From contig JAIRYV010000022.1 of the NCBI GenBank assembly GCA_031267685.1, forward strand, positions 1 through 32,890: DNA of 32,890 nucleotides, given 5' to 3'. Every line of letters begins with the position of its first letter. The stretch's first letter is position 1. Origin of the DNA: Treponema sp. GTDB lineage: Bacteria > Spirochaetota > Spirochaetia > Treponematales > Breznakiellaceae. The notes beneath the pieces are model-generated. The model did not search any database and was not told the origin of the DNA. It saw only the letters and a list, made by a program, of their open reading frames with translations. A program made the position numbers and the translations under genes. This document shows positions 1 through 32,890 of the stretch, one piece after another.

Positions 1-119
1 GCTATAGCCTTTGGGTGAAGAGCTATAGCCTTTGGGTGAAGAGCTATAGCCTTTGGGTGAAGAGCTATAGCCTTTGGGTGAAGAGCTATAGCCTTTGGGT
101 GAAGAGCTATAGCCTTTGA
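1..119. repeat. Tandem direct-repeat array 1. The 21-bp unit gctatagcctttgggtgaaga occurs as 5 perfect copies plus a 14-bp partial copy. The unit contains the perfect 8-bp palindrome gctatagc. The array may continue upstream of the window edge.
   Basis: Read directly: identical copies at 1-21, 22-42, 43-63, 64-84 and 85-105, and a truncated copy at 106-119. Confidence 0.95.
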
Positions 120-301: not shown

Positions 302-1537
302 ATGGGTAAGACAAAGCTCCCTAATCAGACACAGCTTAAAGAAATCTATGACGCATACTTAGCTGTGCGGGTTTTAGTTACCAAAGACCTTGAACAGAGT
401 ATAGAAAAAGCGCTCTGTCCCATGCAATCTCACCCTACTGTCAAGGGCAGAGTTAAAGAGTTCGATAGCTTTTATAAAAAGTATCTCGGCCTGCTTAAAA
501 AAGGCGGCTCTGGGCTGCTTATAACCGATTTGGTCGGAATCAGGGTTATCTGCCCCTTCTTTGAGGATATTTTTGTTGTTGAAAATGTCCTCAAACAAAC
601 CTTTGAAGTTGTTGAAGTTGAACGCAAAGGGTCAAACTATTCTTTCAAAGAATTCGGCTATGAATCGACCCACCTGCTGATAAAACTTCCTAGCGAAGTC
701 AGAGAACAACGGGGGGATTGCGGTATTGACGTGGTTGAAGTGCAGATTCGTACAATACTGCAGGATGCCTGGGCTGAGGTTGAGCATGAGCTGGTGTACA
801 AGGCTGAGTTTACCCCTTTTGATGAACCTATGAAGCGTAAAATCGCGGCGCTCAACGCTAATCTCTTTCTTGCTGATACAATCTTTCAGGAAATCAGAGA
901 ACATCAGCGTAAGCTCAATGGCGAACTGGGCAAACGGCGCGGCTCTTTTTTTAAAAAGGTCGAAGAATCGACTGACCGGTTTTTGTTTGTCGAAGAAACC
1001 CTCGCGAACATTCGCGCAGGCGGTGAGCAAAGCGACCTGCTCCCGACCATACATTCCTCTCGTGCATCCATCGACGAGCTTTTGCTCAATGCCCTCTATG
1101 CCCATAACCGGAATCAGTTTGAGCAGGCTATTACGTTTTACACTCGCATCCTTGAGCTGCATCCCGATAACACCGTCTGTTCCCTTATTTATAAACATCG
1201 GGGCATGGCGAACTTTGCCCGCTCTCACTACGAGGATGCTATCACGGACTTTACTCAGGCGCTGGAACTGGACCCCAGCTCCTACAAGGCTCCGTATTAT
1301 CGGGGAATCGTGAAGGCTATATTACAGCGGTTCTCCGAAGCCATTGATGATTTCAGTCTTTCGCTTACCATGAACGCCTATCAGCCTTTCTGCCTGTATC
1401 GCCGCGGTCAAGCCTACTACCATGTTGGAGACCTGCTCCAGGCACTCACGGACTGTGAATCCGCGCTGAAACTAGAACCTAATTGTGAATCTGTACTGAA
1501 ATTCAAGGAGTTCCTGCTTGAGAAGCTCAAGATGTGA
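302..1537 (+). CDS. RelA/SpoT-family (p)ppGpp synthetase domain protein of the small-alarmone-synthetase type, with C-terminal TPR repeats
   Basis: N-terminal half carries synthetase-domain motifs (LITDLVGIRVICPFFEDI, YESTHLLIKLP, VEVQIRTILQDAWAEVEHELVYK). The C-terminal roughly 150 aa has 3-4 TPR-like repeats (AITFYTRILELHPDN, YEDAITDFTQALELDPSS, LLQALTDCESALKLEPN). ATG start. Confidence 0.9.
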   Translation: MGKTKLPNQTQLKEIYDAYLAVRVLVTKDLEQSIEKALCPMQSHPTVKGRVKEFDSFYKKYLGLLKKGGSGLLITDLVGIRVICPFFEDIFVVENVLKQTFEVVEVERKGSNYSFKEFGYESTHLLIKLPSEVREQRGDCGIDVVEVQIRTILQDAWAEVEHELVYKAEFTPFDEPMKRKIAALNANLFLADTIFQEIREHQRKLNGELGKRRGSFFKKVEESTDRFLFVEETLANIRAGGEQSDLLPTIHSSRASIDELLLNALYAHNRNQFEQAITFYTRILELHPDNTVCSLIYKHRGMANFARSHYEDAITDFTQALELDPSSYKAPYYRGIVKAILQRFSEAIDDFSLSLTMNAYQPFCLYRRGQAYYHVGDLLQALTDCESALKLEPNCESVLKFKEFLLEKLKM

Positions 1538-1638: not shown

Positions 1639-3360
1639 ATGCGACATACAGGAGCAAGGATTTTGATTGAAGCCCTGATTGAACAGGGCGTGGATACGGT
1701 GTTTGGGTATCCGGGCGGCAAGGTGCTGGATATTTATGACGAGCTGTACCAGTGCCGGGACCGGATTCGGCATATTCTGGTGAGCCATGAGCAACATGCG
1801 GCGCATGCTGCCGACGGCTATGCCCGCTCAAGCGGCAAGGTGGGAGTTTGCCTTGCCACCTCTGGCCCGGGCGCGACTAATCTCGTAACCGGCATTGCCA
1901 CAGCCTATATGGACTCAGTACCGTTGGTGGCAATCACGGGCAATGTCGGCAGATCACTCTTAGGCAAGGACAGCTTTCAGGAAGTAGACACCGCTGGCAT
2001 CACCATGCCCATTGTTAAGCATAACTGGATCGTAAAAAGTGTAGAAGACCTGGCTGAAATCGTCCGCGAGGCGTTTATCGTGGCTGTTAGTGGCCGCCCT
2101 GGTCCCGTGCTTATCGACATTCCTGCAGACATCAGCGCGCTTGAGGCGGAAGTGCCTCTGATAGGAACGCTGGCGTCGCTCCCGATTCAGGGTGCGCGGG
2201 CATGGCGCCTGTCCCAGCGGAGTCTGAGGCAGACCTTTACGGAGGCTGACATTGACCGCGCTGTTAGTTTACTGGTCAAGGCAAAACGTCCGGCGATTTA
2301 CGCAGGCGGCGGCGTGATCATTTCTGGCGCATCTGCCAGACTGGTCGCACTTGCCGAGCGGCTGGACGCGCCAGTGAGCCTCAGCCTCATGGGGCTGGGA
2401 GCCATGCCATATGAACATCCGCTCTATACCGGCATGGTTGGTATGCACGGAAGTGTGGCGTCTAACAAGGCTATACAGCAGGCCGACCTCCTGATAGCAA
2501 TCGGCGTGCGTTTCTCAGACCGCGTTACTAGTAGTCCCGACAAGTTTGCGAGTAAGGCCAGGGTTTTGCACTTTGACATTGATCCGGCTGAGATTAACAA
2601 AAACATTCAAGCCGAAGTTTCGGTCATTGGGAATATCCACGATACCCTGAGCCATGTGCTTGAGAAGCTCCCGGCAGACATCAAGACCGAGTGGAATGAC
2701 GATATTAGCACATGGAAAAACGAGGTTCCTCATACGCATCACCGGAAAACCGCGCTCTATCCGCGCTTTATCATTGAAGAAACGGCAAAGGCGCTCAGAA
2801 CACTCGACAATGACGCTATTATTGTTACTGACGTTGGGCAGCATCAGATGTGGACAGCGCAGTTCTATCCCTTTTCAAAGCCGCGTTCCTTCCTTACTTC
2901 CGGCGGACTGGGAACCATGGGCTTTGGGCTTGGCGCAGCCTTGGGCGCAAAGGTCGCCAACCCGTTACGTCCGGTTGTGCTTTTCACTGGCGACGGCTGT
3001 TTCCGCATGAACTGCGCTGAACTGGGAACCTTGAGCGCCTATCACTTGCCCGTGCTGCTGGTGGTGTTCAGTAACGGCGTTCTCGGCATGGTGAGGCAGT
3101 GGCAGACTATTTTTTACGAAGGCCGCTACTCGGAAACCAACCTTGACCGTCCGCCTGATTTCGTGAAACTGGCCTCTGCATATAGCGTTGCAGGCTTCCG
3201 CGCTGACAGCGAAGCCAGCTTCATGGCCGCGCTTGAGGCTGCCATGCGGGAACTTGCCACAGGCCGTGCCGCTGTCATTGACGCCCATATCGACAAGGAC
3301 GAGCGCGTATTGCCAATGGTTCCCGGTGGCAAACCCATTGACGAGCAGATTCTGTCGTAG
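1639..3360 (+). CDS. Acetolactate synthase large-subunit-type thiamine-pyrophosphate enzyme. No small-subunit gene is adjacent, so it may be a catabolic ALS or a related TPP enzyme.
   Basis: 574 aa. The N-terminus reads GARILIEALIEQGVDTVFGYPGG. A TPP-binding motif (GDGCFRMN) is present. The whole length is AHAS-like. The ORF track begins at a TTG at 1621, but the ATG at 1639 fits AHAS N-termini better. Confidence 0.85.
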   Translation: MRHTGARILIEALIEQGVDTVFGYPGGKVLDIYDELYQCRDRIRHILVSHEQHAAHAADGYARSSGKVGVCLATSGPGATNLVTGIATAYMDSVPLVAITGNVGRSLLGKDSFQEVDTAGITMPIVKHNWIVKSVEDLAEIVREAFIVAVSGRPGPVLIDIPADISALEAEVPLIGTLASLPIQGARAWRLSQRSLRQTFTEADIDRAVSLLVKAKRPAIYAGGGVIISGASARLVALAERLDAPVSLSLMGLGAMPYEHPLYTGMVGMHGSVASNKAIQQADLLIAIGVRFSDRVTSSPDKFASKARVLHFDIDPAEINKNIQAEVSVIGNIHDTLSHVLEKLPADIKTEWNDDISTWKNEVPHTHHRKTALYPRFIIEETAKALRTLDNDAIIVTDVGQHQMWTAQFYPFSKPRSFLTSGGLGTMGFGLGAALGAKVANPLRPVVLFTGDGCFRMNCAELGTLSAYHLPVLLVVFSNGVLGMVRQWQTIFYEGRYSETNLDRPPDFVKLASAYSVAGFRADSEASFMAALEAAMRELATGRAAVIDAHIDKDERVLPMVPGGKPIDEQILS

Positions 3361-5882: not shown

Positions 5883-5928
5883 CACGACTGCTTATAACAA
5901 GAGCCGCCTTCTGGCGGCTCTTCGTGTC
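5881..5928. terminator. Bipartite hairpin between the convergent nifU and 5928..8888 genes. Inner stem agagccgcc / ggcggctct (5900-5921, loop ttct). Outer stem gacacga / tcgtgtc.
   Basis: Perfect 9-bp GC-rich inner stem flanked by a perfect 7-bp outer stem, positioned between two convergent stop codons. T-tracts are weak (ttcgtgtc on plus; ttgttataag on minus). Confidence 0.45.
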
Positions 5929-8888
5929 TAAAGCCTTTCGGTCAGGTCATTCGCGTTAAGCATGACCGGCTGACCACCAGCACTTTGTATCAGGATAATA
6001 TCGCCCTGAAAACTGGCCGTCGCATAAGGGTGTATCTGGGTCGCGGATTTCGCGGCAAGCGGGATAACGCCATCGGCAATCGCAGCAGTATCAAAGCGGG
6101 CAAGATAAAGCGCACTGCCTGAACTGACAATGGTGTATATGCTAGCCTCCCGAACCCAGAGCGGCGCGTCAGCATACAGAGAATCAACACCATTGTCGCT
6201 GACCTGTGCGCCAACACCCATGTTTTCCTGATCAATTTGAATAAGCTGGACAAGATTGCCCGGCAATGTCAGTGTCGCAAAAACCTCCTGCTCTTCTCCC
6301 TCACCAATGGCTATTAAGGAACGCGCATTGATGGTGGTGAGGTTTGAAATATTGGTCCTTGCGCCTGTCGCAAGGTTAAGCTCTATGAGAACACCTAAGG
6401 GCGAATCAGACTGCGTCAACTCAATCATAATAACTTTTGTTCCACCCTCATCTTCACTAGCAGTAAAGCCACCCGCCACTGCCTGTCGCGCTGCCTCTTC
6501 CTCAGCCACCTGTTGCGCTGCCTCCGCTTCGGCTGCAAGCCGCGTAGCTTCTTCCGCCGCCTGCCGTGCTATCTCAGCCTGTCGTACAGCCTCTTCCGCC
6601 GCTTGTCGTGCAAGCTCCGTCTGTTGCGCTGCCGCGTCTGCGCTTTGACCCGGGACATTCGCCGCTGCCGCTTGCGCTGTATCAGCCTGCCGTGCCGCTT
6701 CTTCCGCCGCGTCTTGTGCTATCTGCGCCTGCTGCGCCACCGCTTCATCCTGTGGCACGATGTTTTCCGCTGCCTGCTGCGCTATCTCGGCCTGTCGCGC
6801 CGCTTCTTCCGCCGCTTGCCGTGCTATCTCAGCTTGTCGCGCTGCCTCTCCCGCTGCCTGCTGCGCTATCTCGGCCTGTCGTGCCGCTTCTTCCGCCGCC
6901 TGCTGCGCTATCTCCACCTGACGCGCTGCCTCTTCCTCAGCCGCCTGTTGCGCTGCTTCCGCTTCGGCTGCAAGCCGCGTAGCTTCTTCCGCCGCTTGCC
7001 GTGCTATCTCAGCCTGACGTGCCGCCTCTTCAGCCGCTTGCCGCGCTATCTCAGCCTGCTGCGCCACTGCTTCATTCTCAGGTGCCGCTTCATCTGCCGC
7101 CTGCCGTGCTATCTCCGCCTGTCGCGCCGCCTCTTCCGCTGCTTGCCGCGCTATCTCAGCCTGCTGCGCCACTGCTTCATTCTCAGGTGCCGCTTCTTCT
7201 GCCGCCTGCCGTGCTATCTCGGCCTGACGCGCCGCCTCTTCAGCCGCTTGTTGCGCTATCTCAGCCTGTTGCGTTGCCTCTTCATCCGCCGCCTGCTGAG
7301 CCACTGCCTCAGCCTGTTGCGTTGCTGCTGCCTCAGTCGCCTGCTGAGCTGCTGCCTCAGCCTGTTGTGTTGCCGCTTCATCCGCCGCCTGCTGAGCCGC
7401 TGCCTCAGCCTGCTGCGCTGCCGCTTCATCCGCCGCCTGCTGCGCTGCCGCTGCCTCAGCCGCCTGCTGCGCTATCTCAGCTTGCCGTGCGGCTGCCGCT
7501 TCGGCAGCAAGCCGCGAGGCTTCCTCCGCCGCTTGCCGTGCTATCTCAGCCTGTCGCACAGCCTCTTCAGCCGCTTGCCGCACAAGCTCTGTCTGCTGCG
7601 CTGCCGCATCTGCCCCCTGACGCGGGATACTCGCCGCCGCCACTTGCGCTGCATCAGCTTGACGCGCCGCTTCGTCAGCCGCACTTTGCGCTATCTCAGC
7701 CTGTCGCGCCGCTGCTTCATTCTGCGGCATAACGTCTTCCACTGCCTGTTGCGCTCTCTCAGCCTGACGCGCCGCCTCTTCAGCCGCACCTTGCGCTATC
7801 CCAGCCTGTCGCGCCGCTTCGTCAGCCGCCTGACGCGCTATCTCGGCCTGCCGCGCCGCCTCTTCAGCCGCCTGACGCGCAGCTTCCACTTGACGCGCTG
7901 ACTCGGCCCGTCGCTCAGCTTCCGCAGCAATGCCGCCATTCTGATCAATAGCAATATCCTCACGATCGCTTTGAGCATCAAGCATCTTCCGCTCTGCCAT
8001 ACGCTCCGCCTCATCGGCCAGCCTACGCTGTTCTTCCAACGCCCTTTCCCGATCAGCAAGCTCATTCTCAATACGCCGCGCCTCTTCCGGCGACGCCTGT
8101 TGCACCCGCCGACGCTCCGCCGCAATCCTGGCTTCCTCCACCGCAATAGCTTCACGTAAATCCGCAGCCCGCGCCTCAGCCTCGTCCGCCTCACGCTCCT
8201 TTAACTCAACCATCTCTTTCCGTACGTCAAGCCCCTGATTCGGATCACGCCGCAACTCCTCAAGCACGCCCTCATCGCTCACCGCCGATGTGTCTATGGC
8301 ACTCAATGACCCAGGACTCGCGTTACCAAGCGGGATTACAATGAGCGTCCGCCCTGGCCATTCATCAAAACGTACAGAAAGACCAACACGATCAGCGCTC
8401 AAGTCTCCCAGAACCGCTTGTTTATAACGAGAACTGAAAAAGTCCCAGTTACCCCGATAAAATGCGTTATAAATCGTAATATATTGGGCAAGTAACCGCG
8501 CATCTGCCGCCGAGTAGTTATAGGCCCCTTCAAGATAGCCCTGTATGATGAGCCTCAGATTCCGTATGTGGTCTACTCCCACGCCAGACCCTAAGCCAAA
8601 AATGTCTGCATCTATCCGCTCTCCTTCTGGAGCTGTAACCGAATGAATCACAAAGTACCGATTCATAGCGCCTGAACGAGTCGCCCCACGCCGAACCGCA
8701 AGACCCTGTTCATAACCAATGTTCCGAATCTGCGCAACCGTATCAATCCGCGTAACCGGCCCCGTATAATTATAGAACTCAATCGACCCTTGCCCCTGCT
8801 GTAACTCATTGGTATTCACCTGCGCACATAACAATGACGCAAGCAACCCCATCAGTGCAGCGCAAACATAGCTAATCCGTTTATTCAT
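5928..8888 (-). CDS. Large secreted or surface protein (986 aa). It has an N-terminal signal peptide (possibly a lipoprotein), a globular N-domain of about 300 aa, a central Ala/Gln/Glu/Arg-rich coiled-coil-like tandem-repeat region of about 450 aa, and a C-terminal domain of about 170 aa.
   Basis: MNKRISYVCAALMGLLASLLCAQ signal sequence. AAAGAGG RBS upstream. Central repeats of the AARQAEIA(R/Q)QAAEEA type are encoded by near-identical DNA repeats. Confidence 0.85.
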   Translation of the reverse strand: MNKRISYVCAALMGLLASLLCAQVNTNELQQGQGSIEFYNYTGPVTRIDTVAQIRNIGYEQGLAVRRGATRSGAMNRYFVIHSVTAPEGERIDADIFGLGSGVGVDHIRNLRLIIQGYLEGAYNYSAADARLLAQYITIYNAFYRGNWDFFSSRYKQAVLGDLSADRVGLSVRFDEWPGRTLIVIPLGNASPGSLSAIDTSAVSDEGVLEELRRDPNQGLDVRKEMVELKEREADEAEARAADLREAIAVEEARIAAERRRVQQASPEEARRIENELADRERALEEQRRLADEAERMAERKMLDAQSDREDIAIDQNGGIAAEAERRAESARQVEAARQAAEEAARQAEIARQAADEAARQAGIAQGAAEEAARQAERAQQAVEDVMPQNEAAARQAEIAQSAADEAARQADAAQVAAASIPRQGADAAAQQTELVRQAAEEAVRQAEIARQAAEEASRLAAEAAAARQAEIAQQAAEAAAAQQAADEAAAQQAEAAAQQAADEAATQQAEAAAQQATEAAATQQAEAVAQQAADEEATQQAEIAQQAAEEAARQAEIARQAAEEAAPENEAVAQQAEIARQAAEEAARQAEIARQAADEAAPENEAVAQQAEIARQAAEEAARQAEIARQAAEEATRLAAEAEAAQQAAEEEAARQVEIAQQAAEEAARQAEIAQQAAGEAARQAEIARQAAEEAARQAEIAQQAAENIVPQDEAVAQQAQIAQDAAEEAARQADTAQAAAANVPGQSADAAAQQTELARQAAEEAVRQAEIARQAAEEATRLAAEAEAAQQVAEEEAARQAVAGGFTASEDEGGTKVIMIELTQSDSPLGVLIELNLATGARTNISNLTTINARSLIAIGEGEEQEVFATLTLPGNLVQLIQIDQENMGVGAQVSDNGVDSLYADAPLWVREASIYTIVSSGSALYLARFDTAAIADGVIPLAAKSATQIHPYATASFQGDIILIQSAGGQPVMLNANDLTERL
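6480..7910. repeat. Intragenic near-perfect tandem DNA repeats with periods of about 48 and 108 bp, encoding the coiled-coil repeat region of the 986-aa protein
   Basis: For example, 7024-7115 and 7133-7224 are near-identical, as are 6486-6560 and 6925-7000. The ORF track's plus-strand Arg/Cys/Leu-rich and Pro-rich ORFs here are frame artefacts of the repeats. Confidence 0.85.
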
Positions 8889-8927: not shown

Positions 8928-10082
8928 TTACATAATCGGTAGAAATGACAATGTATTGACAGAGGATTTTGCTACAGACCGCGCACGACTGTCAGTCTCC
9001 CTGATTGCGTCAAACTCAAGCTTACCGTCCCAGTTCTGCTCCAGTGCTAGTGCCACAACACGGGCAATGTCAGGAAAGCGTATCTGCCCCGCGAGAAACG
9101 CCGCGACCGCAACCTCATTGGCCGCGTTATACACGACCGGATATAAATCTCCGGCACTCAACGCCTGATATGCAAGGGGGACCATGGGGAACTTTTCCCC
9201 ATCCGGCTGCTCAAAACTGAGCGTAAGCTGCTTAAAGTCAAGTGCTTCAAAGCCTAAAGGTGCATGTACAGGGTAATAAAGCGCATTCTGAATAGGAAGG
9301 CGCATATCAGGCCGTGAAAGCTGCGCATAAATCGCCCCATCTTTCAGGCTAATCATCGAATGAACAATACTCTGAGGATGAACCAGAACCTGTATCACAT
9401 CAGTTGCGGCGCTTATCGGTATATCAAACAGTCGTACAGCCTCAATGACCTCAAGGCCCTTGTTTGCCATACTTGCCGAGTCAATCGTGATCTTAGCGCC
9501 CATGTTCCATGTGGGATGCTTGAGCGCGTCCTGTGCCTGCACTCTGCCCAACTGTTCCTGCGTGTATGCGCGAAACGGCCCGCCCGACGCGGTTAAGAGG
9601 ATTGTTGCCAGATTCTCCCTGCCATGAGCCTCAAGCAACTGAAAGATAGCGGAATGTTCGGAATCAACTGGCAGTATCCGCGCCTTCTTTGCTTGAGCCA
9701 GAGCGCGTATCAGAGGCCCGGCCATGACAATGGTTTCTTTATTAGCCAGTGCCAAGTCTATACCTGCCTCTAATGCCGCGACAGACGGCGCAAGTCCAGC
9801 CGCGCCCGCAATCCCGTTAACCACAATATCCGCGCCGCAGCCACTGATTGCCCGCAACAAACCTTCACTGCCAACATAGCCAGCACGGAATCCGCCTTGT
9901 TCCACGCCTGAGAGCGCCAGCACTGCATCAGGAAACTCCGCACCGAGCGCCTCTAAGCCAGCCCTATCAGTATGGCTTGAAAAAAGGACAACCTCAAACA
10001 TATCTTTCCCTCGACGCAGCACATCAAGCGTGCTTTTTCCAATAGAACCAGTAGCGCCGAGCAGAGCAACTTTCTTTCTCAT
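8928..10082 (-). CDS. dxr: 1-deoxy-D-xylulose 5-phosphate reductoisomerase
   Basis: 384 aa. N-terminal NADPH-binding motif KKVALLGATGSIGKSTLDV and Dxr-like sequence throughout. Confidence 0.95.
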   Translation of the reverse strand: MRKKVALLGATGSIGKSTLDVLRRGKDMFEVVLFSSHTDRAGLEALGAEFPDAVLALSGVEQGGFRAGYVGSEGLLRAISGCGADIVVNGIAGAAGLAPSVAALEAGIDLALANKETIVMAGPLIRALAQAKKARILPVDSEHSAIFQLLEAHGRENLATILLTASGGPFRAYTQEQLGRVQAQDALKHPTWNMGAKITIDSASMANKGLEVIEAVRLFDIPISAATDVIQVLVHPQSIVHSMISLKDGAIYAQLSRPDMRLPIQNALYYPVHAPLGFEALDFKQLTLSFEQPDGEKFPMVPLAYQALSAGDLYPVVYNAANEVAVAAFLAGQIRFPDIARVVALALEQNWDGKLEFDAIRETDSRARSVAKSSVNTLSFLPIM

Positions 10083-10295: not shown

Positions 10296-10555
10296 CCTTT
10301 TCCGAGCTTAGGAACGTATCCTTTCCTAAGCTCGGAGTGTACCCTTTCCTAGCTTAGGAGTGTACCCTTTCCTAGTATTAGGAAAGCACCCTTTCCTAAT
10401 ACTAGGAGTGTACCCTTTCCTAGTACTAGGAAAGCACCCTTTCCTAATACTAGGAAAGCACCCTTTCCTAATACTAGGAAAGCACCCTCTCCGAGCTTAG
10501 GAAAGCACCCTAAACTCGGCTAAGAGCGTATCTTCTCCGAGCGCTGGGAAAGTAT
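10296..10555. repeat. Tandem direct-repeat array 2: about 11 copies of a 23-24 bp unit (consensus cctttcctaatactaggaaagcac). Each unit is itself an imperfect palindrome (cctttcct-N6-aggaaag).
   Basis: Read directly. Central copies are perfect or nearly perfect and flanking copies are degenerate (ccgagcttagg variants). The array is intergenic, 210-470 bp upstream of the dxr start. Confidence 0.9.
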
Positions 10556-10684: not shown

Positions 10685-11506
10685 TCAAGAAGCTCCCTTG
10701 TACTTGTCATCGAGTTTGCTCATCCAATAGGCAAGGATGATGCCGGCGATACAGGCGATAACGCAGATCAGCGTTGTCCAGCTCATATAGTTGAACTCAC
10801 GCGGGATAATCATCAAGGTTGAGGCAACTACTATGCCGAGAATGAAGTGAAACATGCCCGCATACGCACGGGCAAGCAGCGCGTCAATCACTTTGGAAAG
10901 ACCAAAAAGGCATATCGCACCACCAAGCGCCAGAGGAAGCAGCGCTAGTACGTCTAGGGTCTTGAAGGCGTCTACCATGGGCTGATACATACCGAGGTAC
11001 ACAAGAAAATTCGATGGACTTAAGCCCGGCACAAGTACTCCAAGGGCAATGAGCGCGCCTGCCAACATCCATGTACCAAAGTTAAGCGGTATCTGCCCCT
11101 TGAAAAGAGATTCCCCGGTATACAGAAACACAAAGCCTACGACTGCTGACACTATGAGTATAAGTACGTGGCGCTTACTCCGGCCCTTTTTGCCAACTTC
11201 CCGCCATAGCGCGGGTAGAGTTCCTAAAATACAGCCGACAAAGAACCAGAGTACCTGTGTCTCGTAATTGGTGAGCAGGAAGCTCACGCCAAAGGAGAGT
11301 ATGAAGATGCCAGTCAGCGCGCCCAGTCCGACGGGCAGGAAGAACAGGACATTAGCCTTAAAGTCATGGGTGATATGGGCAATGAAGCTGATGATACGTT
11401 CATAGATGCCAAAAATTGCTGCTAACGCGCCGCCGCTCACGCCGGGCAGTATAAACCCAGTGCCAATAAACGCACCCTTCACAAAACGAAACATCCAGTC
11501 TTTCAT
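10685..11506 (-). CDS. DUF368-family polytopic membrane protein (a family implicated in undecaprenyl-phosphate recycling)
   Basis: N-terminus MKDWMFRFVKGAFIGTGFILPGVSGGALAAIFGIYERI is typical of DUF368. About 8 TM helices. The preferred ATG at 11506 overlaps the upstream GNAT stop as ATGA. The track start at 11521 is a TTG. Confidence 0.8.
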   Translation of the reverse strand: MKDWMFRFVKGAFIGTGFILPGVSGGALAAIFGIYERIISFIAHITHDFKANVLFFLPVGLGALTGIFILSFGVSFLLTNYETQVLWFFVGCILGTLPALWREVGKKGRSKRHVLILIVSAVVGFVFLYTGESLFKGQIPLNFGTWMLAGALIALGVLVPGLSPSNFLVYLGMYQPMVDAFKTLDVLALLPLALGGAICLFGLSKVIDALLARAYAGMFHFILGIVVASTLMIIPREFNYMSWTTLICVIACIAGIILAYWMSKLDDKYKGAS

Positions 11507-11985
11507 ACCAATAACTCCCAATAGCCCACGTTCAGCCAGTTTCCGAGCTTAAAGCCAATCTCGTCAAGCTGGCCTATCTTACGGAAGCCTAGCTTCTCAT
11601 GCAAGCCCACGCTCCCTTCATTAGGAACGGTGATTCCCGCAACCATCGCGTGTAAGGAACGCCTCTGCGCCTCGTGTATCAGGCTTGAGAGAAGCGCTGT
11701 GCCGATACCTTTTCGCTCATGCCCCCTTTTGATATAGACGGAATCTTCTACCGCAAAACGATAGGCGCGCCGTTCCTTCCATTTATTCAAATAGGCATAG
11801 CCAAGAACCTCGTTGTTTTCCTCCCAGACGATGTATGGATACTCAGCGCTTATTGTGCGGATACGCGCCTCCATGGTGTTAAGCGAAACCGGCGCTTCCT
11901 CAAAGCTGATGGCGGTTTGCTCAATGTAGGGATTGTAGATAGCAGCTATGGCAGCTGCATCAGCAACGTTTACTGGACGAATCAT
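11503..11985 (-). CDS. GNAT-family N-acetyltransferase (phosphinothricin-acetyltransferase-like)
   Basis: 160 aa. MIRPVNVADAAAIAAIYNPYIEQTAISFEE with an acetyl-CoA motif RKGIGTALL. Its start lies 2 nt after the flotillin stop. Confidence 0.85.
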   Translation of the reverse strand: MIRPVNVADAAAIAAIYNPYIEQTAISFEEAPVSLNTMEARIRTISAEYPYIVWEENNEVLGYAYLNKWKERRAYRFAVEDSVYIKRGHERKGIGTALLSSLIHEAQRRSLHAMVAGITVPNEGSVGLHEKLGFRKIGQLDEIGFKLGNWLNVGYWELLV

Positions 11986-21164: not shown

Positions 21165-22103
21165 ATGCGGAGATTTATCATCGGTTTGCTTGCGGCGTTC
21201 TGTTTATCGGCTGCTGGCTGTGTTTCATCTGGCAAGGCAGCACCCGAACTTCACTACCAGCTGTATAAGGATGTAAGCTACGGTCCTCATGAGCGGAATC
21301 TGATAGACATCTCAATACCCGTCGAGGCGGCAGCGTCCCAAGGGGTGATTCTCTTTATTCACGGCGGAATATGGATGTATGGTGGTAAGGAAAACTACCC
21401 AGTTTTCCTTGATGGTTTTCGGGACAGGTTCACCGTCGCGTCCATGAGCCATCGCTATATTGATGAAACTACCCACATAACCGATCTGATGGACGATGTA
21501 AGCGCTGCCGTGTCCTTTCTGCGGGACTTTTCCACGCAAAACAACGCGAACCCGGGAAAACTGATCATCATGGGACATTCCTCCGGCGCACACCTTGCAA
21601 TGCTCTATGCCTACCAACAGTATGAGACAAGTTCCATACCAATAGCGTTGTGTGTAAGCATGGCAGGCCCGTCAGACTTAGGCGACATCGCCTTTCTCTA
21701 TAACTTCAAAAAGATGGGCGGGGAAAAGTTTTTCTACCAGTTGGCTGAAAAGTTGAGCGGCTATCACGTTGTAGACGGCGATGTTACCAGCGAGGGGTAC
21801 AGCGAATCCGGCAGGGAAATGCTGGCAGCCATTTCTCCCCTCTCTTTCGTAAGCCCCGACAGTCCGCCGACCATTATCGTACACGATGCCGCAGATACGC
21901 TGGTTCCCTACGCGAACTCGGCAGCCCTGCACACTGCACTCAAGGTGTATGGCGTTGACCATTACTTTATGGCTTCCTACTCTGGCATCGGCCATGTGCT
22001 TGGCGCCAAATCAACTAAGGAAAAAGCATTACGCTACGACGCGGCTCTGGAGTCATGGTTAGTCCGCATAATGAACGAGTATATAGAAAAGATGAAGGGA
22101 TAA
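21165..22103 (+). CDS. Alpha/beta-hydrolase esterase or lipase (HGGG and GxSxG type), predicted lipoprotein
   Basis: Start MRRFIIGLLAAFCLSAAGC, a lipobox-like signal, with an AAGAGG RBS. Oxyanion motif HGGIWMYGG. Nucleophile motif GHSSGAHLA. The track ORF 20667..22103 is a spurious 5' extension overlapping the permease gene. Confidence 0.8.
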   Translation: MRRFIIGLLAAFCLSAAGCVSSGKAAPELHYQLYKDVSYGPHERNLIDISIPVEAAASQGVILFIHGGIWMYGGKENYPVFLDGFRDRFTVASMSHRYIDETTHITDLMDDVSAAVSFLRDFSTQNNANPGKLIIMGHSSGAHLAMLYAYQQYETSSIPIALCVSMAGPSDLGDIAFLYNFKKMGGEKFFYQLAEKLSGYHVVDGDVTSEGYSESGREMLAAISPLSFVSPDSPPTIIVHDAADTLVPYANSAALHTALKVYGVDHYFMASYSGIGHVLGAKSTKEKALRYDAALESWLVRIMNEYIEKMKG

Positions 22104-22191
22104 AATGTCTGATGTCGCCATTGCTTATCGAGAAGCGCCGCGCACAGCTCTGTAAAGAACGGCGCACGGCATCACTGTTTTGATAAAACCA

Positions 22192-22605
22192 TTAAGTCGT
22201 CGGTGTTTCAGGTGTTTCAGGTGTTTCTGCAGGTATCTCAAAAGTTATATCTTCAAGACTGCGTTTAAGCTCAGGAGACGGCAAAAATAACATCTTTACA
22301 CCCTTTACATACCGGGCGTTTAGTTCTTTTGCCGTTGCCGCTCCTTCGCTGGAAACCGAAATACGGAACGTACCGAAACCCTCAAGGTTCACCGTCTGCC
22401 CCAGCTTGAGGAAAACGGGTAACACTTCTACTAAATTGGAGAGAACGCTCTGCACGTCCCCTGGCGAAAGTGCCGACCGCCCCTCAATTTCCCTTGAGAT
22501 GTCCTTCATCCCTACGCTTCCCGATTTTTCCTGCGTCAGATACCATTTTTCCTGCGTTTCACTCAGAGGATTCCTTCTCTGGATTTTTTTGAGCCAAAGC
22601 GCCAT
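22192..22605 (-). CDS. HU/IHF-like DNA-binding protein (divergent HU family)
   Basis: The central segment SALSPGDVQSVLSNLVEVLPVFLKLGQTVNLEGFGTFRISV matches the HU fold pattern (helix, then the GFGTF arm). The start is uncertain: the ATG at 22605 (MALWLKK) is preferred over the track's 22668. Confidence 0.6.
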   Translation of the reverse strand: MALWLKKIQRRNPLSETQEKWYLTQEKSGSVGMKDISREIEGRSALSPGDVQSVLSNLVEVLPVFLKLGQTVNLEGFGTFRISVSSEGAATAKELNARYVKGVKMLFLPSPELKRSLEDITFEIPAETPETPETPTT

Positions 22606-22722
22606 ATACGCCTCCTCTATATAAAATATGCATACACTATAATATACTATATTAAAAATAGCAAGCACTTTTATTACTGAAAGTTAGAATGAATCGCCTC
22701 AGAGACACACCTAACTTGCCTT

Positions 22723-22970
22723 AGAGAGTTGTACATCTCAAATCAGAGAGTTGTACATCTCAAACCAGAGAGTTGTACATCTCAAATCAGAGAGTTGTAC
22801 ATCTCAAACCAGAGAGTTGTACATCTCAAATCAGAGAGTTGTACATCTCAAATCAGAGAGTTGTACATCTCAAACCAGAGAGTTGTACATCTCAAACCAG
22901 AGAGTTGTACATCTCAAATCAGAGAGTTGTACATCTCAAATCAGAGAGTTGTACATCTCAAACCAGAGAG
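22723..22970. repeat. Tandem direct-repeat array 3: 11 copies of the 22-bp unit agagagttgtacatctcaaa(t/c)c. The unit contains the near-palindrome gagTtgtacaTctc.
   Basis: Read directly. The only variation is t/c at one position. The array lies in the 5' region of the HU-like gene. The three ORF-track ORFs here are frame artefacts. Confidence 0.95.
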
Positions 22971-22996
22971 ATGCGGGAGTCTATACCTCGTATTCC

Positions 22997-24274
22997 TCAT
23001 TGGGACGGTCTGATTGTCGTCGCTGAATCAGCGAGGGGCTCATGGCTGCTAATCAGCACTTTGTCGATTCGGTTGCCATCCATACTCAGAATCATGAACT
23101 GGTAACCGTTGTGGGAAAAAGTCTCGCCGACGTGAGGGATTTTACCGGCAAGGTTGAGGATAAAACCAGCCAACGTGTGGTATTCCTGATGTTCGCCAAC
23201 AAGCGTTTCCAGACAGAGTACGTCAGCAACTTCATCAATATTGGCGCCGCCTTCCACGAGTAAGGAACCGTCGTCCTGCTGAAGTATCTCGGCCTGGTCT
23301 TTGGCCTCAGTCGAGAATTCGCCGACAAGCTCTGCCATCAAGTCCTGTATGGAAAGAATACCGACAAAGCCGCTGTATTCGTCCATAACCATAAGCAGGG
23401 TTTCCTGCCTGAACGCTTCAAATGTCTTGAGCGCAGATATGGTTTCTGGTATGAAGTAGGGCTTTTTCATAATGCTCCGCAGCCCAGGCCAGACGCCATG
23501 AAGCAGAGCGCGAAGAATGTCCTCGACCGAAACTACGCCACAAATCTCGTCAAGCGTCCCGTTCGCTACAGGAAAAGAACGCTGCGCCTTGACGTTAAGA
23601 ACGAGATTTCGTGCAGTTTCCGCATCAGCGTTAATGTCTAGCCACTCAATCTCTGAACGATGAGTCATAAACGTTCCCGCTTCCCGGTCGCCCAGGTATA
23701 AAACGCCCTCAACCATAGTTCGCTCTTTGCTTTCAACAACGCCGGAACGTTCCCCTTCGACAAGAGCGATATGGAACTCATCCGCAGTCATGTTGCCCTC
23801 AGCGCGACCAGCTTTGGTACGGGAAAGACTGTGGGCAATGAGTATAAGCGGCAGGCCGAATAAGGTCAGGAGGGTGATGATGAACTGCTCCGGCATGTTA
23901 CGGGCAAGGAGGCGAGGAAGAATTTCGCCCAGAATAAGCGTGATCAGCGAAACCCCGAGGCTTACCAGCATGATCACCAGCACGTTATGACTGACTACAG
24001 TGGGCGCTGCTACCATGACCACGCCGATACCAGTCACTACGCCAGCCAGTATGCCTAGAAAAGTGCCAACATTTCTCAGCGGGAAACGTTCCGGCGACTC
24101 AAGTAGCTTGAGAGCCGCCGAGAGCGCCTTACGTTGTCTGGTGTCAGAGACGCTTTCAATTCTGGAACGGAGTGCGGTCTTCCGCGTTGAAAACAAAACG
24201 CTTTCCAGCAGCGTGCATAAGATTTTTAAGATGATAAGAAGAATAAACAAAAAGGACGGTAAGGGGTCTTCCAT
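22997..24274 (-). CDS. CNNM/CorC/HlyC-family transporter-associated protein (DUF21 TM domain, CBS pair, CorC_HlyC C-domain)
   Basis: 425 aa. N-terminal 4-TM DUF21 segment, two CBS-like segments, and a C-terminal transporter-associated domain. Confidence 0.9.
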   Translation of the reverse strand: MEDPLPSFLFILLIILKILCTLLESVLFSTRKTALRSRIESVSDTRQRKALSAALKLLESPERFPLRNVGTFLGILAGVVTGIGVVMVAAPTVVSHNVLVIMLVSLGVSLITLILGEILPRLLARNMPEQFIITLLTLFGLPLILIAHSLSRTKAGRAEGNMTADEFHIALVEGERSGVVESKERTMVEGVLYLGDREAGTFMTHRSEIEWLDINADAETARNLVLNVKAQRSFPVANGTLDEICGVVSVEDILRALLHGVWPGLRSIMKKPYFIPETISALKTFEAFRQETLLMVMDEYSGFVGILSIQDLMAELVGEFSTEAKDQAEILQQDDGSLLVEGGANIDEVADVLCLETLVGEHQEYHTLAGFILNLAGKIPHVGETFSHNGYQFMILSMDGNRIDKVLISSHEPLADSATTIRPSQ

Positions 24275-26340: not shown

Positions 26341-28320
26341 TCACAGCTTGTCGATAAGCATTGAGCATTTCCCCGAAGGGATAGGCAGGGTCTTTTTCTT
26401 CTTCTCCAGTATATTGATAGTGAAGTAGTAGAGTTTTTCGCTTTCCATGTGGATTTCCCAGCCCCTGCCGCTCTTGTTCGAGAGTATGGTGATCATGTTC
26501 TTCTTGAGCGAGAGGTTTTCCACACCCATGATTTCCAGATTGGGAATGATCCAGTCTACGGTTTTACGGGGCAGGGAAATGAAAAGCCCTACAATGTTTT
26601 CTATCATAAGGCAGATTGTTGACAGTGCGTCATAGGTGAGGTACTGGACACGAGGGAAGTCTGGGTTATCAGGCCAGATAGCGTGTCCCTCCTGCAGGGG
26701 AAGATAGGCTTCCCAGAGATTGCCCCGGTGTGAGCTGTGATGACCATTGGCATGGCCTTCGGTCATGGAATCAAGCACGAAGTAGAGGTGGCGTATGGCG
26801 CACTCGCGCGCCAGGTCCCAGCGCTGGTAACGCTCCAGTCCTTTTATCACCATGAAGGTGAGGTGAGGATAAACCGAACCCCGATAACCGCAGCCGTTTT
26901 CGTCAAAACAAGGTTCATTCACTGCCAGTGTGGGGAAGGGATGAGGAGCGCCAAAAAACTGGGGGTCCTGTAGCTTGGCGATGAGCCGTTCAGCCTTATC
27001 ATCATTAGGGATTTCTGCAAGGAGTGGCCAGTAACCTGCGATGGTTTTTACCGGAATCTGTTTCTCGTCCCGGTCAATATCGTAGTAAAAGCCATCATCG
27101 GCGTTCCACATGAGGCTGTTAATCCGCGTCTTGAGTGAAAAGTAGATTTTCTTATAGTGGAAGCTGGCATCCTTATCATTAAGAATATCCGAGAGCGCTG
27201 ACATATAGAGTACATTGATGGCCATCATGGTATTGAAGTCCATGGGATAGACTGTCTGTTCACGCGGGGTGTTCTCCATGTCTGTAGCGATGAGAGGCAC
27301 TTCGTAAAGACCATTAGGCCGTTTGAAAGTGGCGTCAATCCACTCAATATACCTATGCAAAACAGGTAGTATGTCCTTCACCCGTTTTTTGTTTGCTGAC
27401 TTATGATAGAGGTTGAATTCAGCCCAGGCAAACAGGGGGATTCCAATGCCCTCTGGGTTATCAGGGGTAAACACAGGGAGTCCGGTCTCGATACTGTAGG
27501 CATTACGAATCGCTCCGTTAGGTTCCTGACGCTCATAAAAGATATCAAGGGTTGGGTGCGCTTGATAGATGCGGTTTGAGTAAACAAGGAAAAACGAGGA
27601 GTAGATTGCATCGGCCTGCCGCGTCACGGAGCTGCCCGGGTATGCAAAGAACTTTCCTTCGATGATGTGCGGTGTATTGAAGAGCGGCTTCTCCTCAGCC
27701 TGAGCCGGCTCTTCTGGCAACACTGATTCAGCGCCTTGCTCAGGCGTGCTTCCCTCAGCCTGAGCCGGCTCTTCTGGCAACGCTGGTTCAGGCGTGCTTC
27801 CCTCAGCCTGAGCCGGTTCTTCTGGCAACGCTGGCTCAACGCCTTGCTCAGGCGTGCTTCCCTCAGCCTGAGCCGGCTCTTCTGGCAACGCTGGCTCAAC
27901 GCCTTGCTCAGGCACGCTTCCCTCAGCCTGAGTCGGCTCTTCTGGCAACACTGGCTCAGCGCCTTGCTCAGGCACGATCTCGGTTCCTGCCGATATGGTT
28001 TCCGCGCTTGCCGTACTGTTACCAGGCACTGAAAGCACTATGGGTAAAACCATCGGGGAATCTGCCAATATGACAGGCGGCGAAAGTTCCTCGTTAACCA
28101 TGATTTCCACCGGGAAATCAGGAACCGTAGCAGCTTGCGTCGCTTCATCAGCGGACGGTACGTCAGATGTGACGTCTCCTCCAAGCGCGGTATGTACTAT
28201 GGCTACCTTCTCATTACCCGAACTCCAGCAATCTTGAATCCACGCCCACGTTTTATCATAGATATCAACGAAATCCTGATCGTAAAAATGTATTTTGGGG
28301 AAATCACGCTTTATCAACAT
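26341..28320 (-). CDS. Cytoplasmic glycoside hydrolase of the (alpha/alpha)6-barrel type (tentatively GH63 / MGH1 / GDE_C-like), interrupted by a Pro/Glu-rich 20-aa tandem-repeat segment
   Basis: 659 aa with no signal peptide. A large conserved C-terminal catalytic-looking domain. Five repeats of PEQGVEPALPEEPAQAEGST near the N-terminus. Confidence 0.7.
   Translation of the reverse strand: MLIKRDFPKIHFYDQDFVDIYDKTWAWIQDCWSSGNEKVAIVHTALGGDVTSDVPSADEATQAATVPDFPVEIMVNEELSPPVILADSPMVLPIVLSVPGNSTASAETISAGTEIVPEQGAEPVLPEEPTQAEGSVPEQGVEPALPEEPAQAEGSTPEQGVEPALPEEPAQAEGSTPEPALPEEPAQAEGSTPEQGAESVLPEEPAQAEEKPLFNTPHIIEGKFFAYPGSSVTRQADAIYSSFFLVYSNRIYQAHPTLDIFYERQEPNGAIRNAYSIETGLPVFTPDNPEGIGIPLFAWAEFNLYHKSANKKRVKDILPVLHRYIEWIDATFKRPNGLYEVPLIATDMENTPREQTVYPMDFNTMMAINVLYMSALSDILNDKDASFHYKKIYFSLKTRINSLMWNADDGFYYDIDRDEKQIPVKTIAGYWPLLAEIPNDDKAERLIAKLQDPQFFGAPHPFPTLAVNEPCFDENGCGYRGSVYPHLTFMVIKGLERYQRWDLARECAIRHLYFVLDSMTEGHANGHHSSHRGNLWEAYLPLQEGHAIWPDNPDFPRVQYLTYDALSTICLMIENIVGLFISLPRKTVDWIIPNLEIMGVENLSLKKNMITILSNKSGRGWEIHMESEKLYYFTINILEKKKKTLPIPSGKCSMLIDKL
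27693..27975. repeat. Intragenic 60-bp tandem DNA repeat of about 4.8 copies, one of which carries a 12-bp deletion. It encodes the PEQG...AEGST repeats of the glycoside hydrolase.
   Basis: Read directly: unit cctcagcctgagccggctcttctggcaacgctggctcaacgccttgctcaggcgtgcttc. Confidence 0.9.
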
Positions 28321-32092: not shown

Positions 32093-32640
32093 GGAGTGGG
32101 AAGCCTCTTCTAACTAGAAGAAGGCGGCTCTTCTAACTAGAAGAAGTCAGCTCTTCTAACTAGAGTGAGATGACTCTTCTAACTAGAAGAAGGCGACTCT
32201 TCTAACTAGAAGAAGGCGACTCTTCTAACTAGAAGAATGTGGCTCTTCTAACTAGAGTGGGAAGCCTCTTCTAACTAGAAGAAGGCGACTCTTCTAACTA
32301 GAATGAGATGACTCTTCTAACTAGAAGAAGGCGACTCTTCTAACTAGAATGAGATGACTCTTCTAACTAGAAGAAGGCGGCTCTTCTAACTAGAGTGAGA
32401 TGACTCTTCTAACTAGAATGAGATGACTCTTCTAACTAGAAGAAGGCAACTCTTCTAACTAGAATGAGATGACTCTTCTAACTAGAAGAAGGCGATTCTT
32501 CTAACTAGAATGAGATGACTCTTCTAACTAGAATGAGATGACTCTTCTAACTAGAAGAAGGCGCTTACCTACCTTATGACAAGACTCTTCTAACTAGAAG
32601 AAGGCGCTTACCTACCTTATGACAAGACTCTTCTAACTAG
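32093..32640. repeat. Tandem direct-repeat array 4: 22 copies of a 23-bp unit, each an invariant 13-nt core ctcttctaactag plus a 10-nt variable segment (aagaaggcgN, a[ag]tgagatga, aagaagtcag, aagaatgtgg, agtgggaagc). The last 2 units carry an identical 20-bp insertion.
   Basis: Read directly. It starts 1 nt after the comEC stop and ends at a CTAG immediately before the putative IS left end. Confidence 0.95.
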
Positions 32641-32679
32641 GGTGTGTTCACATTACACGCAATAAGCTATACTGGGGAT

Positions 32680-32890
32680 ATGGAAATAAGTGAAGAACAA
32701 TACCGGAGGATTCAAAACCTTTTGCCCACGCAAAGAGGGCATGTAACAATAGCGAACTTGACCTTACTGAACGCTCTGATCTACCGCTGTGAGAACGGTA
32801 GTAAATGGCGAGCGTTGCCTGAAAGGTTTGGCCATTGGCATGTTATCTCTATGCGATTGAATCGCTGGGCAAAGAGCGGGGTACTGGAAC
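32680..32890 (+). mobile_element. IS5-family transposase (DUF4096-type N-terminal domain), 5' partial that runs off the window. The putative IS left end begins about 32641, right after a CTAG.
   Basis: MEISEEQYRRIQNLLPTQRGHVTIANLTLLNALIYRCENGSKWRALPERFGHWHVISMRLNRWAKSGVL matches the conserved N-terminal pattern of IS5-family transposases (EEQW..I..LLP / LNAI.Y....G..WR.LP..FG.W..V..RF.RW...GV). Confidence 0.7.

Follow-up and report, generated by a model that had tools for sequence, protein, structure and literature searches.

What role could a tandem array of eleven 22-bp units play directly upstream of the gene for a small DNA-binding protein? This question is raised by contig JAIRYV010000022.1 of a termite-gut Treponema sp. 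metagenome-assembled genome (MAG), whose entire length of 32,890 bp was analysed and is referred to here as the window. The gene encodes a protein of HU-HIG, a clade that was defined by Burroughs et al. (2017, PMC5499826) and described there as undergoing rampant lineage-specific expansion and fast divergence with no conserved gene linkage. HU-HIG is a large family without a known function, about which the defining paper could only speculate; a role in conflicts with invasive DNA was proposed, and adjacent repeat arrays were not mentioned. The comparison of homologous loci suggested that the partner of HU-HIG may be an adjacent phased repeat array and not a gene. With a probability of about one half, we consider the array to be a bank of phased cognate binding sites for the adjacent HU-HIG protein, and the gene together with its 21- to 22-bp array to be a conserved module. 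Taking the array as the protein's own target is the most economical reading because the linkage outlasts changes of repeat unit, copy number, gene context, side of the gene and phylum.

Linkage of HU-HIG genes to 21- and 22-bp arrays

Forty-three loci from contigs representing one genome per species were examined with Tandem Repeats Finder (TRF); individual loci are given L numbers where they need to be told apart. In approximately 20 of the 43, a 21- or 22-bp array lies 45-240 bp upstream of the gene, and the unit differs from locus to locus. Where TRF made no call, a lag analysis still gave a peak at lag 21 or 22, around position -130, and the best lag was 21 or 22 in 28/30 loci. As measured by 21/22-bp self-similarity in the 300 bp upstream of spirochaete homologues, periodicity was present in 29/35 compared to 5/140 other genes in the same loci (Fisher p = 3e-22), an enrichment of ~130-fold over the upstream regions of other genes, and downstream of the homologues it was detected in 0/36. 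The comparison to tiled control windows gave 22/30 and 15/925, respectively (p = 2e-28). All of the TRF-called arrays beside the gene (39/39) had a period of 21 or 22 bp, while the periods of other arrays in the same sequences ranged from 19 to 24. An array next to the gene of a DNA-binding protein, in a linkage conserved among the homologues, is the arrangement by which an array of cognate sites can be recognized, and this arrangement was found. A preliminary description of this DNA had suggested asking whether homologues also sit beside tandem arrays, with a complete lack of association counting against its proposals; the linkage turned out to be strongly conserved.

The same subfamily of ~126-aa proteins, with the arm-tip motif of the family (SEGxxT[PA]EEL), is present in Bacteroidota. 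In 13 of 21 non-redundant loci with Bacteroidota-type homologues, the array lies just downstream, between +2 and +300, compared to 3/55 controls (p = 5e-7), and upstream periodicity was observed in 2/19 loci and in 2/58 other genes; the metagenome scan with a Bacteroidota alignment yielded 13 loci, which is a small sample. Examples include L068, with AAAAGATACGTATCTTTTAAC x 3.7 at +10, a perfect palindrome of 18 bp, and L063, with AGATACGTATCATTTTGCTCAG at +37. The array is found upstream in the Prevotella-type loci L041 and L077, as well as in L078 (AAGTGTAGGCCTGTACTTACCA x 2.5), a locus with WxL-protein neighbours that was binned as Streptococcaceae. Judging from these loci, the linkage of gene and array spans at least two bacterial phyla, and probably more. 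No 21- to 22-bp array was found at the longer HU-HIG forms (147-180 aa) of Bacteroides, Parabacteroides and Prevotella.

Two further observations concern the distribution of the family. In Bacteroides finegoldii (L075), Prevotella nigrescens (L076) and Parabacteroides distasonis (L074), the longer HU-HIG gene repeatedly clusters with DUF4248, with a very small open reading frame (ORF) that is a 'smalltalk protein' or hypothetical, and with a hydrolase of the cell-wall amidase or D-Ala-D-Ala carboxypeptidase families; L075 also carries a 20-bp x 2.4 repeat at -93. Near-identical family members with arrays were also seen in termite-gut bins labelled Planctomycetaceae, Syntrophomonadaceae, Azoarcus and Streptococcaceae (L021, L026, L027, L031, L032 and L078). 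Such bins reflect either horizontal transfer of a gene-plus-array module or mis-binning, and the WxL neighbours of L078 are of genuine Firmicutes type.

The downstream position in Bacteroidota bears on an explanation in which the repeats act as RNA, or as extruded hairpins or cruciforms, that the HU-like protein would bind through structure and not through sequence. Such RNA would originate from the 3' untranslated region of the HU-HIG gene in Bacteroidota and, in the window, from read-through of the upstream CorC gene. E. coli HU binds RNAs derived from repetitive extragenic palindromes, and cruciforms, in a comparable way. Many Bacteroidota-type arrays begin 2-65 bp past the stop codon, and the window array begins 26 bp past the stop codon of the CorC/CNNM gene (22997..24274, minus strand), on the same strand and with no terminator predicted between them. 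Additionally, six window units as single-stranded DNA fold better than shuffles (z = -5.0), and the units overall show a tendency to dyad symmetry. The single-unit hairpins in the window are weak, however (4-bp arms, 8-nt loop), no match to an Rfam family was obtained, with nothing credible at 21900-23200, and the spirochaete arrays lie upstream of the gene's own promoter. Moreover, the strict 21-22-bp period is predicted by helical phasing of a duplex and is not needed by an RNA hairpin. Taken with these points, recognition of RNA or hairpins seems quite unlikely.

No conserved neighbour gene was found. The CorC, esterase and HD-domain genes and the other window neighbours were never located beside a homologue in the 43 loci, and the genes beyond the Bacteroidota arrays are mutually unrelated and sometimes convergent. 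Synteny thus led us to reject an array that serves a conserved neighbour gene, also for the genes downstream of the Bacteroidota arrays. Because the neighbours are unrelated or not shared, the conserved unit consists of the gene plus the array alone.

This layout is formally like that of plasmid iterons with Rep, or of parC-type centromeres with ParR/ParG, in which phased direct repeats flank the gene of a small dimeric binding protein and in which arrays overlapping the promoter would give autoregulation. By this analogy, the array could serve a mobile replicon or a segregation system as its centromere- or iteron-like site, to which the HU-HIG protein would bind as an adaptor, and the occurrence of the module in termite-gut bins of several phyla would suggest horizontal movement. 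We consider such an origin highly improbable. Neither a ParA/ParM or Rep gene nor any other partner ATPase or initiator was located nearby in the window or in any fetched locus, the surroundings are ordinary chromosomal genes (dxr, the Borrelia_P83 homologue, ABC transporter genes and ComEC), and the modules occur in two or three copies per MAG. The protein, whose binding is putative, also has an HU fold and not the ribbon-helix-helix or winged helix-turn-helix (wHTH) fold of those systems.

The HU-HIG protein, its promoter and the array of the window

The longest ORF at the locus (22192..22668, minus strand) has 158 aa when counted from GTG. The start was set at the ATG at 22605 because the N-terminus M-A-x-x-L-[KR]-K is conserved in 30 homologues, and the protein length of 137 aa given in the preliminary description was upheld by this criterion. 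The features of the locus, and the arrays of its close relatives, are listed in Table 1.

Table 1. Features of the HU-HIG locus in the window and arrays at the homologous loci of close relatives
Feature	Position	Strand	Details
Coding sequence of stand-alone HU-HIG (TIGR01201) DNA-binding protein, 137 aa	22192..22605	-	Profile match, conserved start; 100% identical to a Treponema sp. MAG protein
Stop codon of the HU-HIG coding sequence	22192-22194	-	
Shine-Dalgarno AGGAGG, 5 nt before ATG	22611..22616	-	Sequence; AAGGAGG conserved in homologous loci
Predicted sigma70-type promoter: -35 TTGCTA (22664..22659), 17-bp spacer, -10 TATAGT (22641..22636)	22636..22664	-	Aligns with the conserved cTTGAC-N17-TAtnnT of relatives
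58-bp promoter-to-array stretch	22665..22722	-	Aligns with promoter-proximal degenerate units of relatives, decayed here (GTGTGTCTCTGAGG vs CCGCATCTCTCGGCGG)
Tandem array, 22 bp x 11.3; gene-strand unit GATTTGAGATGTACAACTCTCT	22723..22970	.	TRF, sequence
Distal edge unit keeping the ancestral motif of the clade, gene strand CTCCCGCATCTCTCT	22965..22979	-	Compared to units of L001/L003/L006/L030/L060
Array of P0002 (L057)			22 bp x at least 27.9, running into the contig end
P0002, second contig (L058), 1.2 kb			Promoter-proximal repeat remnant only
Array of P0008 (L059)			22 bp x 4.2
Array of P0004 (L060)			22 bp x 2.7
Array of P0018, Pillotina (L061, L062)			21 bp x 40.2 and x 45.2; two assemblies, same locus

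The Pfam HU-HIG profile (PF18291) matched residues 6-123 of the protein to profile positions 6-124 of 125 (E = 6.7e-22, 78.3 bits, cutoff 26.2), and the TIGR01201 model (HU_rel) scored 84.4 bits with a cutoff of 68.6. The window protein is an ordinary stand-alone member of the HU-HIG clade. It shares with the clade (PF18291; TIGR01201; structure 4FMR, BVU_2165) scores above the curated cutoffs, the fold with an N-terminal hairpin, the existence of paralogues and the lack of operon partners. It differs in its occurrence in Spirochaetota and not Bacteroidota and in its stand-alone form of ~125-137 aa, without the C-terminal wHTH, immunoglobulin (Ig) or glycine-rich fusion from which the name HU-HIG derives: no second Pfam domain was found, and the protein stops 14 residues past the HU-HIG domain. 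The C-terminal Pro/Glu/Thr tail PAETPETPETPTT, which had been pointed out as TPETPETPTT, is indeed present, and among homologues it is variable and in many cases missing. A profile search for HU-HIG returned 8196 clusters at 50% identity with E <= 1e-3; 213 of them reached E <= 1e-30, and the 150 best matches listed were almost all 124-135 aa long. The lineage-specific expansion and the absence of a conserved operon partner that are typical of HU-HIG were both observed in the loci compared, with two to three copies per MAG in several MAGs.

An AlphaFold2 model built on an alignment of 127 diverse sequences reached a predicted local distance difference test score (pLDDT) of 89, whereas the model from 31 close homologues (pLDDT 49.7) was unusable. 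The former contains an N-terminal beta-hairpin (residues 2-11 and 19-25), two helices and a beta-arm (78-86 and 100-109). Foldseek ranked chains of 4FMR first (E = 2e-5, 123-125 aligned columns) and HU, IHF and Hbb next, so that the model shows the HU/IHF core fold with an extra N-terminal beta-hairpin as in 4FMR. The protein had previously been regarded as a divergent HU with a 30-aa N-extension. Because the PF18291 match spans residues 6-123, this 'extension' is part of the family domain, and in the model it corresponds to the normal HU-HIG hairpin.

Canonical HU and IHF proteins share the core fold, and a dimer with beta-arms is presumed for the window protein. IHF also provides a precedent for sequence-selective binding in the HU/IHF superfamily. 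The equivalog models for HU-alpha, IHF-alpha and IHF-beta (NF008023, TIGR00988, NF001401), however, gave 13-15 bits to the window protein compared to cutoffs of 111-162, its arm tip carries the family-specific motif, and PF00216 was matched marginally and partially (residues 34-85, 23.5 bits, cutoff 22.4). We know of no canonical hup or ihf gene that is accompanied by such arrays. Other searches with the window protein gave marginal HU-alpha matches only (PDB sequences), weak matches to phrog_379 'DNA binding protein' only (PHROGs) or no match (PADLOC), and tblastn of phage sequences returned only unannotated fragments with 24-37% identity.

TRF reported the window array with a period of 22, 11.3 copies and 96% matches. 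The 16-bp core GAGAGTTGTACATCTC is present in 11 copies with zero mismatches, compared to 0.14 matches expected at up to 3 mismatches, and was not found elsewhere in the 32.9-kb window; the single variable position of the units is a linker base (T/C). The arrangement first described, with an HU-like gene beside eleven 22-bp units and transcribed away from them, was confirmed, and the distance of about 120 bp to the preferred start became 117 bp to the ATG.

Several other identities of the array were considered. A coding repeat was ruled out: a period of 22 is not divisible by 3, and the ORFs that span the array are repeat artefacts. The units run head to tail without spacers, unlike a CRISPR array. 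Sigma70-like sites were absent within the array, which led us to reject a bank of promoters. A phase-variable promoter in which copy number sets spacing, as proposed in the preliminary description, was not supported, since 58 bp separate the array from the downstream -35 hexamer and the repeats lie outside the -35/-10 spacer.

The proximity of array and promoter invites an explanation in which the array is a promoter-upstream element that acts independently of the HU-HIG protein or through another factor, for example as phased or curved DNA, as a UP-like element, as an insulator or as sites for a regulator encoded elsewhere, and that tunes or shields a highly expressed nucleoid-protein gene, much as comparable arrays would at other promoters in these genomes. 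Spirochaete arrays end at or just upstream of the -35 element, and in some classes (L020, L025) the -35 hexamer falls within the last unit. An AAAA...TTTT layout with the two-turn period is seen in many units. Furthermore, another array of the window (1-118) ends 13 bp before TTGACA-N17-TACACT beside an unrelated RelA_SpoT/TPR gene, and a 23-nt minisatellite with promoter activity, BrickBuilt, has been described in Porphyromonas gingivalis (Klein et al. 2015, PMC4596501). This explanation nevertheless leaves the 3' position in Bacteroidota unaccounted for, where the same family is followed by unrelated and sometimes convergent genes. GC-rich units, including those of the window, lack A-tracts, the only promoter-like site in 22000-23100 is outside the array, and the ~130-fold enrichment singles out HU-HIG genes among upstream regions. 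For these reasons we regard a promoter element as an unlikely, if reasonable, explanation.

Repeat units and their turnover

The unit sequence varies between lineages as well as between paralogues of one MAG. For instance, two paralogues of Roe453_bin17 are accompanied by CCGCATCTCTC units (L003) and AAATTCCCGGAG units (L019), a difference that would be expected if the units were private sites. Copy number ranges from 2.5 to 45 across the arrays. Four close relatives (76-79% identity over alignment A1) have arrays in all six fetched loci, with 2.7 to 45 copies. In the cultured Treponema saccharophilum JCM 32279 (WP_002701845.1, NZ_AP025289.1 339793-340167), repeats occupy the region 70-330 bp upstream of the gene: 21-bp units were located at 270-330 bp, and two CG[CT]ATC units 22 bp apart were found near -110. 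A CG[CT]ATC core is shared by 12/38 unit consensus sequences from both phyla, where 0.56 would be expected and 2000 shuffles gave no more than 4, although several of those arrays are related to one another.

Homology was found between the window unit and the degenerate repeats that lie proximal to the promoter in its relatives (window CAACTCTCTGATTTGAGA compared to CAACTCTCGCTTGAGA in L001 and CCGCAACTCTCG in L003). Based on this alignment, we propose that one ancestral unit was amplified to 11 identical copies in the window while the promoter-proximal units decayed. Long homogeneous arrays such as that of the window are recent amplifications. The short arrays behave differently. In the orthologous loci L002, L004, L005 and L059, five AAAAC-N-CAGTG-NG-TTTT units have a core that is invariant position by position (alignment A3), whereas the adjacent upstream gene end diverges; because the units are conserved position by position while the flank diverges, short arrays are under purifying selection.

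As for symmetry, the mean dyad score of the units is 6.5/9 compared to ~5.4 for shuffles, and 6/38 units reach p <= 0.05, the window unit not being one of them, so that the trend is modest and not universal. Clear dyads are found in L068 (AAAAGATAC|GTATCTTTT) and L078 (AAAGTGTAGG|CCTACACTTT), and such units would suit a homodimer. The window unit itself holds TGTACA and GAGA/TCTC arms that are offset by one base. The '22-bp near-palindromic units' of the preliminary description are thus correct in their period, while the palindromy is weak.

Copy-number variation could also indicate a neutral or selfish minisatellite, slippage-prone or similar to a transposable element of the miniature inverted-repeat type (MITE), that became associated with HU-HIG genes by mutational bias or hitch-hiking. 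The eleven identical cores indicate a very recent expansion, the wide range of copy numbers extends to two assemblies of one Pillotina locus that differ by ~107 bp or five units (both are short-read assemblies), contigs often break at arrays, and other arrays are common in the window, one of them beside an IS4/5-type transposase fragment. The closest known parallel is again BrickBuilt, a family in which a single 23-nt unit is dispersed over 19 sites and is accompanied by a leader, a tail and terminal inverted repeats (PMC4596501). It shares with the arrays studied here the intergenic location near gene starts, the spacer-less tandem repeats of ~22-23 nt, and a host-associated anaerobic bacterium; its elements have 1 to ~23 copies that vary between strains, and 1 of the 19 adjoins a PF00216 DNA-binding protein gene. 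A MITE of this type was rejected for the window, as the unit occurs only in this array within the 32.9 kb and no inverted repeats flank it across 22000-23200. In the loci compared here, each has its own unit, so that the arrays are not one dispersed family, the period is 21-22 bp, terminal inverted repeats are lacking, and the linkage is to one protein family. That linkage and its fixed period hold across phyla, purifying selection acts position by position on the short arrays of orthologous loci, and the window units are homologous to degenerate repeats at the same promoter in relatives. A neutral or selfish origin is therefore judged very unlikely.

Two side observations were made on the long arrays. 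In Pillotina, two to three copies of a second, unrelated ~22-bp unit, GGGGACAGACCTCTGTCGATCT, lie just distal to the 40-45-copy array (L061 ~2990-3075, L062 ~2880-2965), such that two array types are stacked at one HU-HIG gene. In addition, many homologous loci have a contig end a few hundred bp upstream of the gene (e.g., L018, L024, L030 and L057); because these ends fit long arrays breaking short-read assemblies, the TRF copy numbers are lower bounds.

How the array may act, with other repeats of the window

If the array is the binding-site bank of the adjacent protein, one unit would be occupied by one HU-fold homodimer. A period of 21-22 bp corresponds to two helical turns and would place successive dimers on one face of the DNA, which could result in a cooperative nucleoprotein filament. 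In spirochaetes, occupancy of the array may feed back on the gene's own promoter, most likely through negative autoregulation and titration, with the copy number setting the size of the sink. Such feedback would be a likely local consequence, as the spirochaete array borders on the -35 element and in some classes contains it. Since most Bacteroidota have the array downstream, its general role would be broader, possibly that of a cis-linked site for landing or nucleation. The architectural-protein target or autoregulatory site bank that was put forward in the preliminary description hence receives support as a putative binding site, through the comparative evidence of conserved linkage. The conservation of linkage despite switching of sides, together with purifying selection, argues most strongly against the neutral and promoter-only explanations.

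Several observations weigh against a bank of cognate sites. The array differs in side, being upstream in spirochaetes and downstream in most Bacteroidota, so that promoter autoregulation is not its universal role, and in the window it stops 58 bp short of the -35 element. The dyad score of the window unit (6/9) is like that of shuffled units (P = 0.49). The beta-arm tip is nearly invariant among spirochaete proteins with completely different units, which implies that sequence specificity would sit elsewhere, for example in the variable loop of the N-terminal hairpin. The variable positions of the protein are this loop (residues 14-19), residues 27-35 and residues 111-112. Loop and unit classes agree in several groups, with counter-examples, and in a partial Mantel test that took the rest of the protein into account, unit distance was not significantly related to loop distance (r = 0.11, p = 0.055). 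Additionally, the three other 21-24-bp arrays of the window adjoin unrelated genes, and 21/22-bp periodicity is found beside 4-8% of other genes in these genomes (upstream 5/140, downstream 11/140), from which it follows that such arrays can exist without an adjacent HU-HIG gene. Finally, the authors who defined HU-HIG considered its members unlikely to be sequence-specific transcription factors (PMC5499826).

A more far-reaching interpretation is put forward tentatively, at lower confidence than the site bank itself. The stand-alone HU-HIG gene and its private, fast-diversifying and copy-variable array might constitute a widespread, self-contained and so far unrecognised module of two parts that moves between genomes and phyla as a unit, with each paralogue marking or organising its own locus as an orthogonal chromatin 'address', possibly in connection with the genetic-conflict role proposed for the clade. 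Should the pairs prove cognate and orthogonal to one another, they would amount to a naturally occurring set of HU-fold proteins that diverge in their DNA specificity. Such a collection would help in studying the evolution of sequence specificity in a scaffold that is generally taken to be non-specific, and would serve as a source of orthogonal DNA-tethering parts. It would also account for a class of intergenic minisatellites of 21-22 bp at which metagenome assemblies of termite-gut spirochaetes break. No report of an association between HU-HIG genes and arrays was found in the literature, where search coverage was incomplete and 'undescribed' is a provisional term.

Beyond HU-HIG genes, termite-gut Treponema chromosomes contain many intergenic 21/22-bp minisatellites, and the window itself contains three further arrays. 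Positions 1-160 take in array 1 (21 bp x 5.6, GCTATAGCCTTTGGGTGAAGA), with 100% identical units that run off the contig start; it lies upstream of the RelA_SpoT and TPR gene (302..1537) in an array-then--35 layout like that of the HU-HIG locus, beside an unrelated neighbour. Array 2 (10299-10511, 24 bp x ~8-9, TAGGAAAGTACCCTTTCCTAATAC) is located between dxr (8928..10082, minus strand) and a VCA0040-like gene (10685..11521, minus strand) and has the most palindromic unit of the window (8/9 dyad pairs, P = 0.006). Array 4 (32105-32890, 23 bp x 22, CTCTTCTAACTAGAAGAAGGCGA) includes a 43-bp higher-order variant; behind it, starting at 32693, comes the N-terminus of an IS4/5-family transposase (DUF4096, E = 1.2e-17), which is cut off by the end of the contig. 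Each end of the contig is thus at or close to a repeat array, which probably reflects a break of the assembly at that point. In-frame repeats were also observed within two coding sequences on the minus strand, with periods of 42/105/435 bp at 6482-7898 in the Borrelia_P83/100 homologue (5928-8888) and of 48/60/108 bp at 27687-27973 in a GH63/trehalase-like gene (26341-28320).

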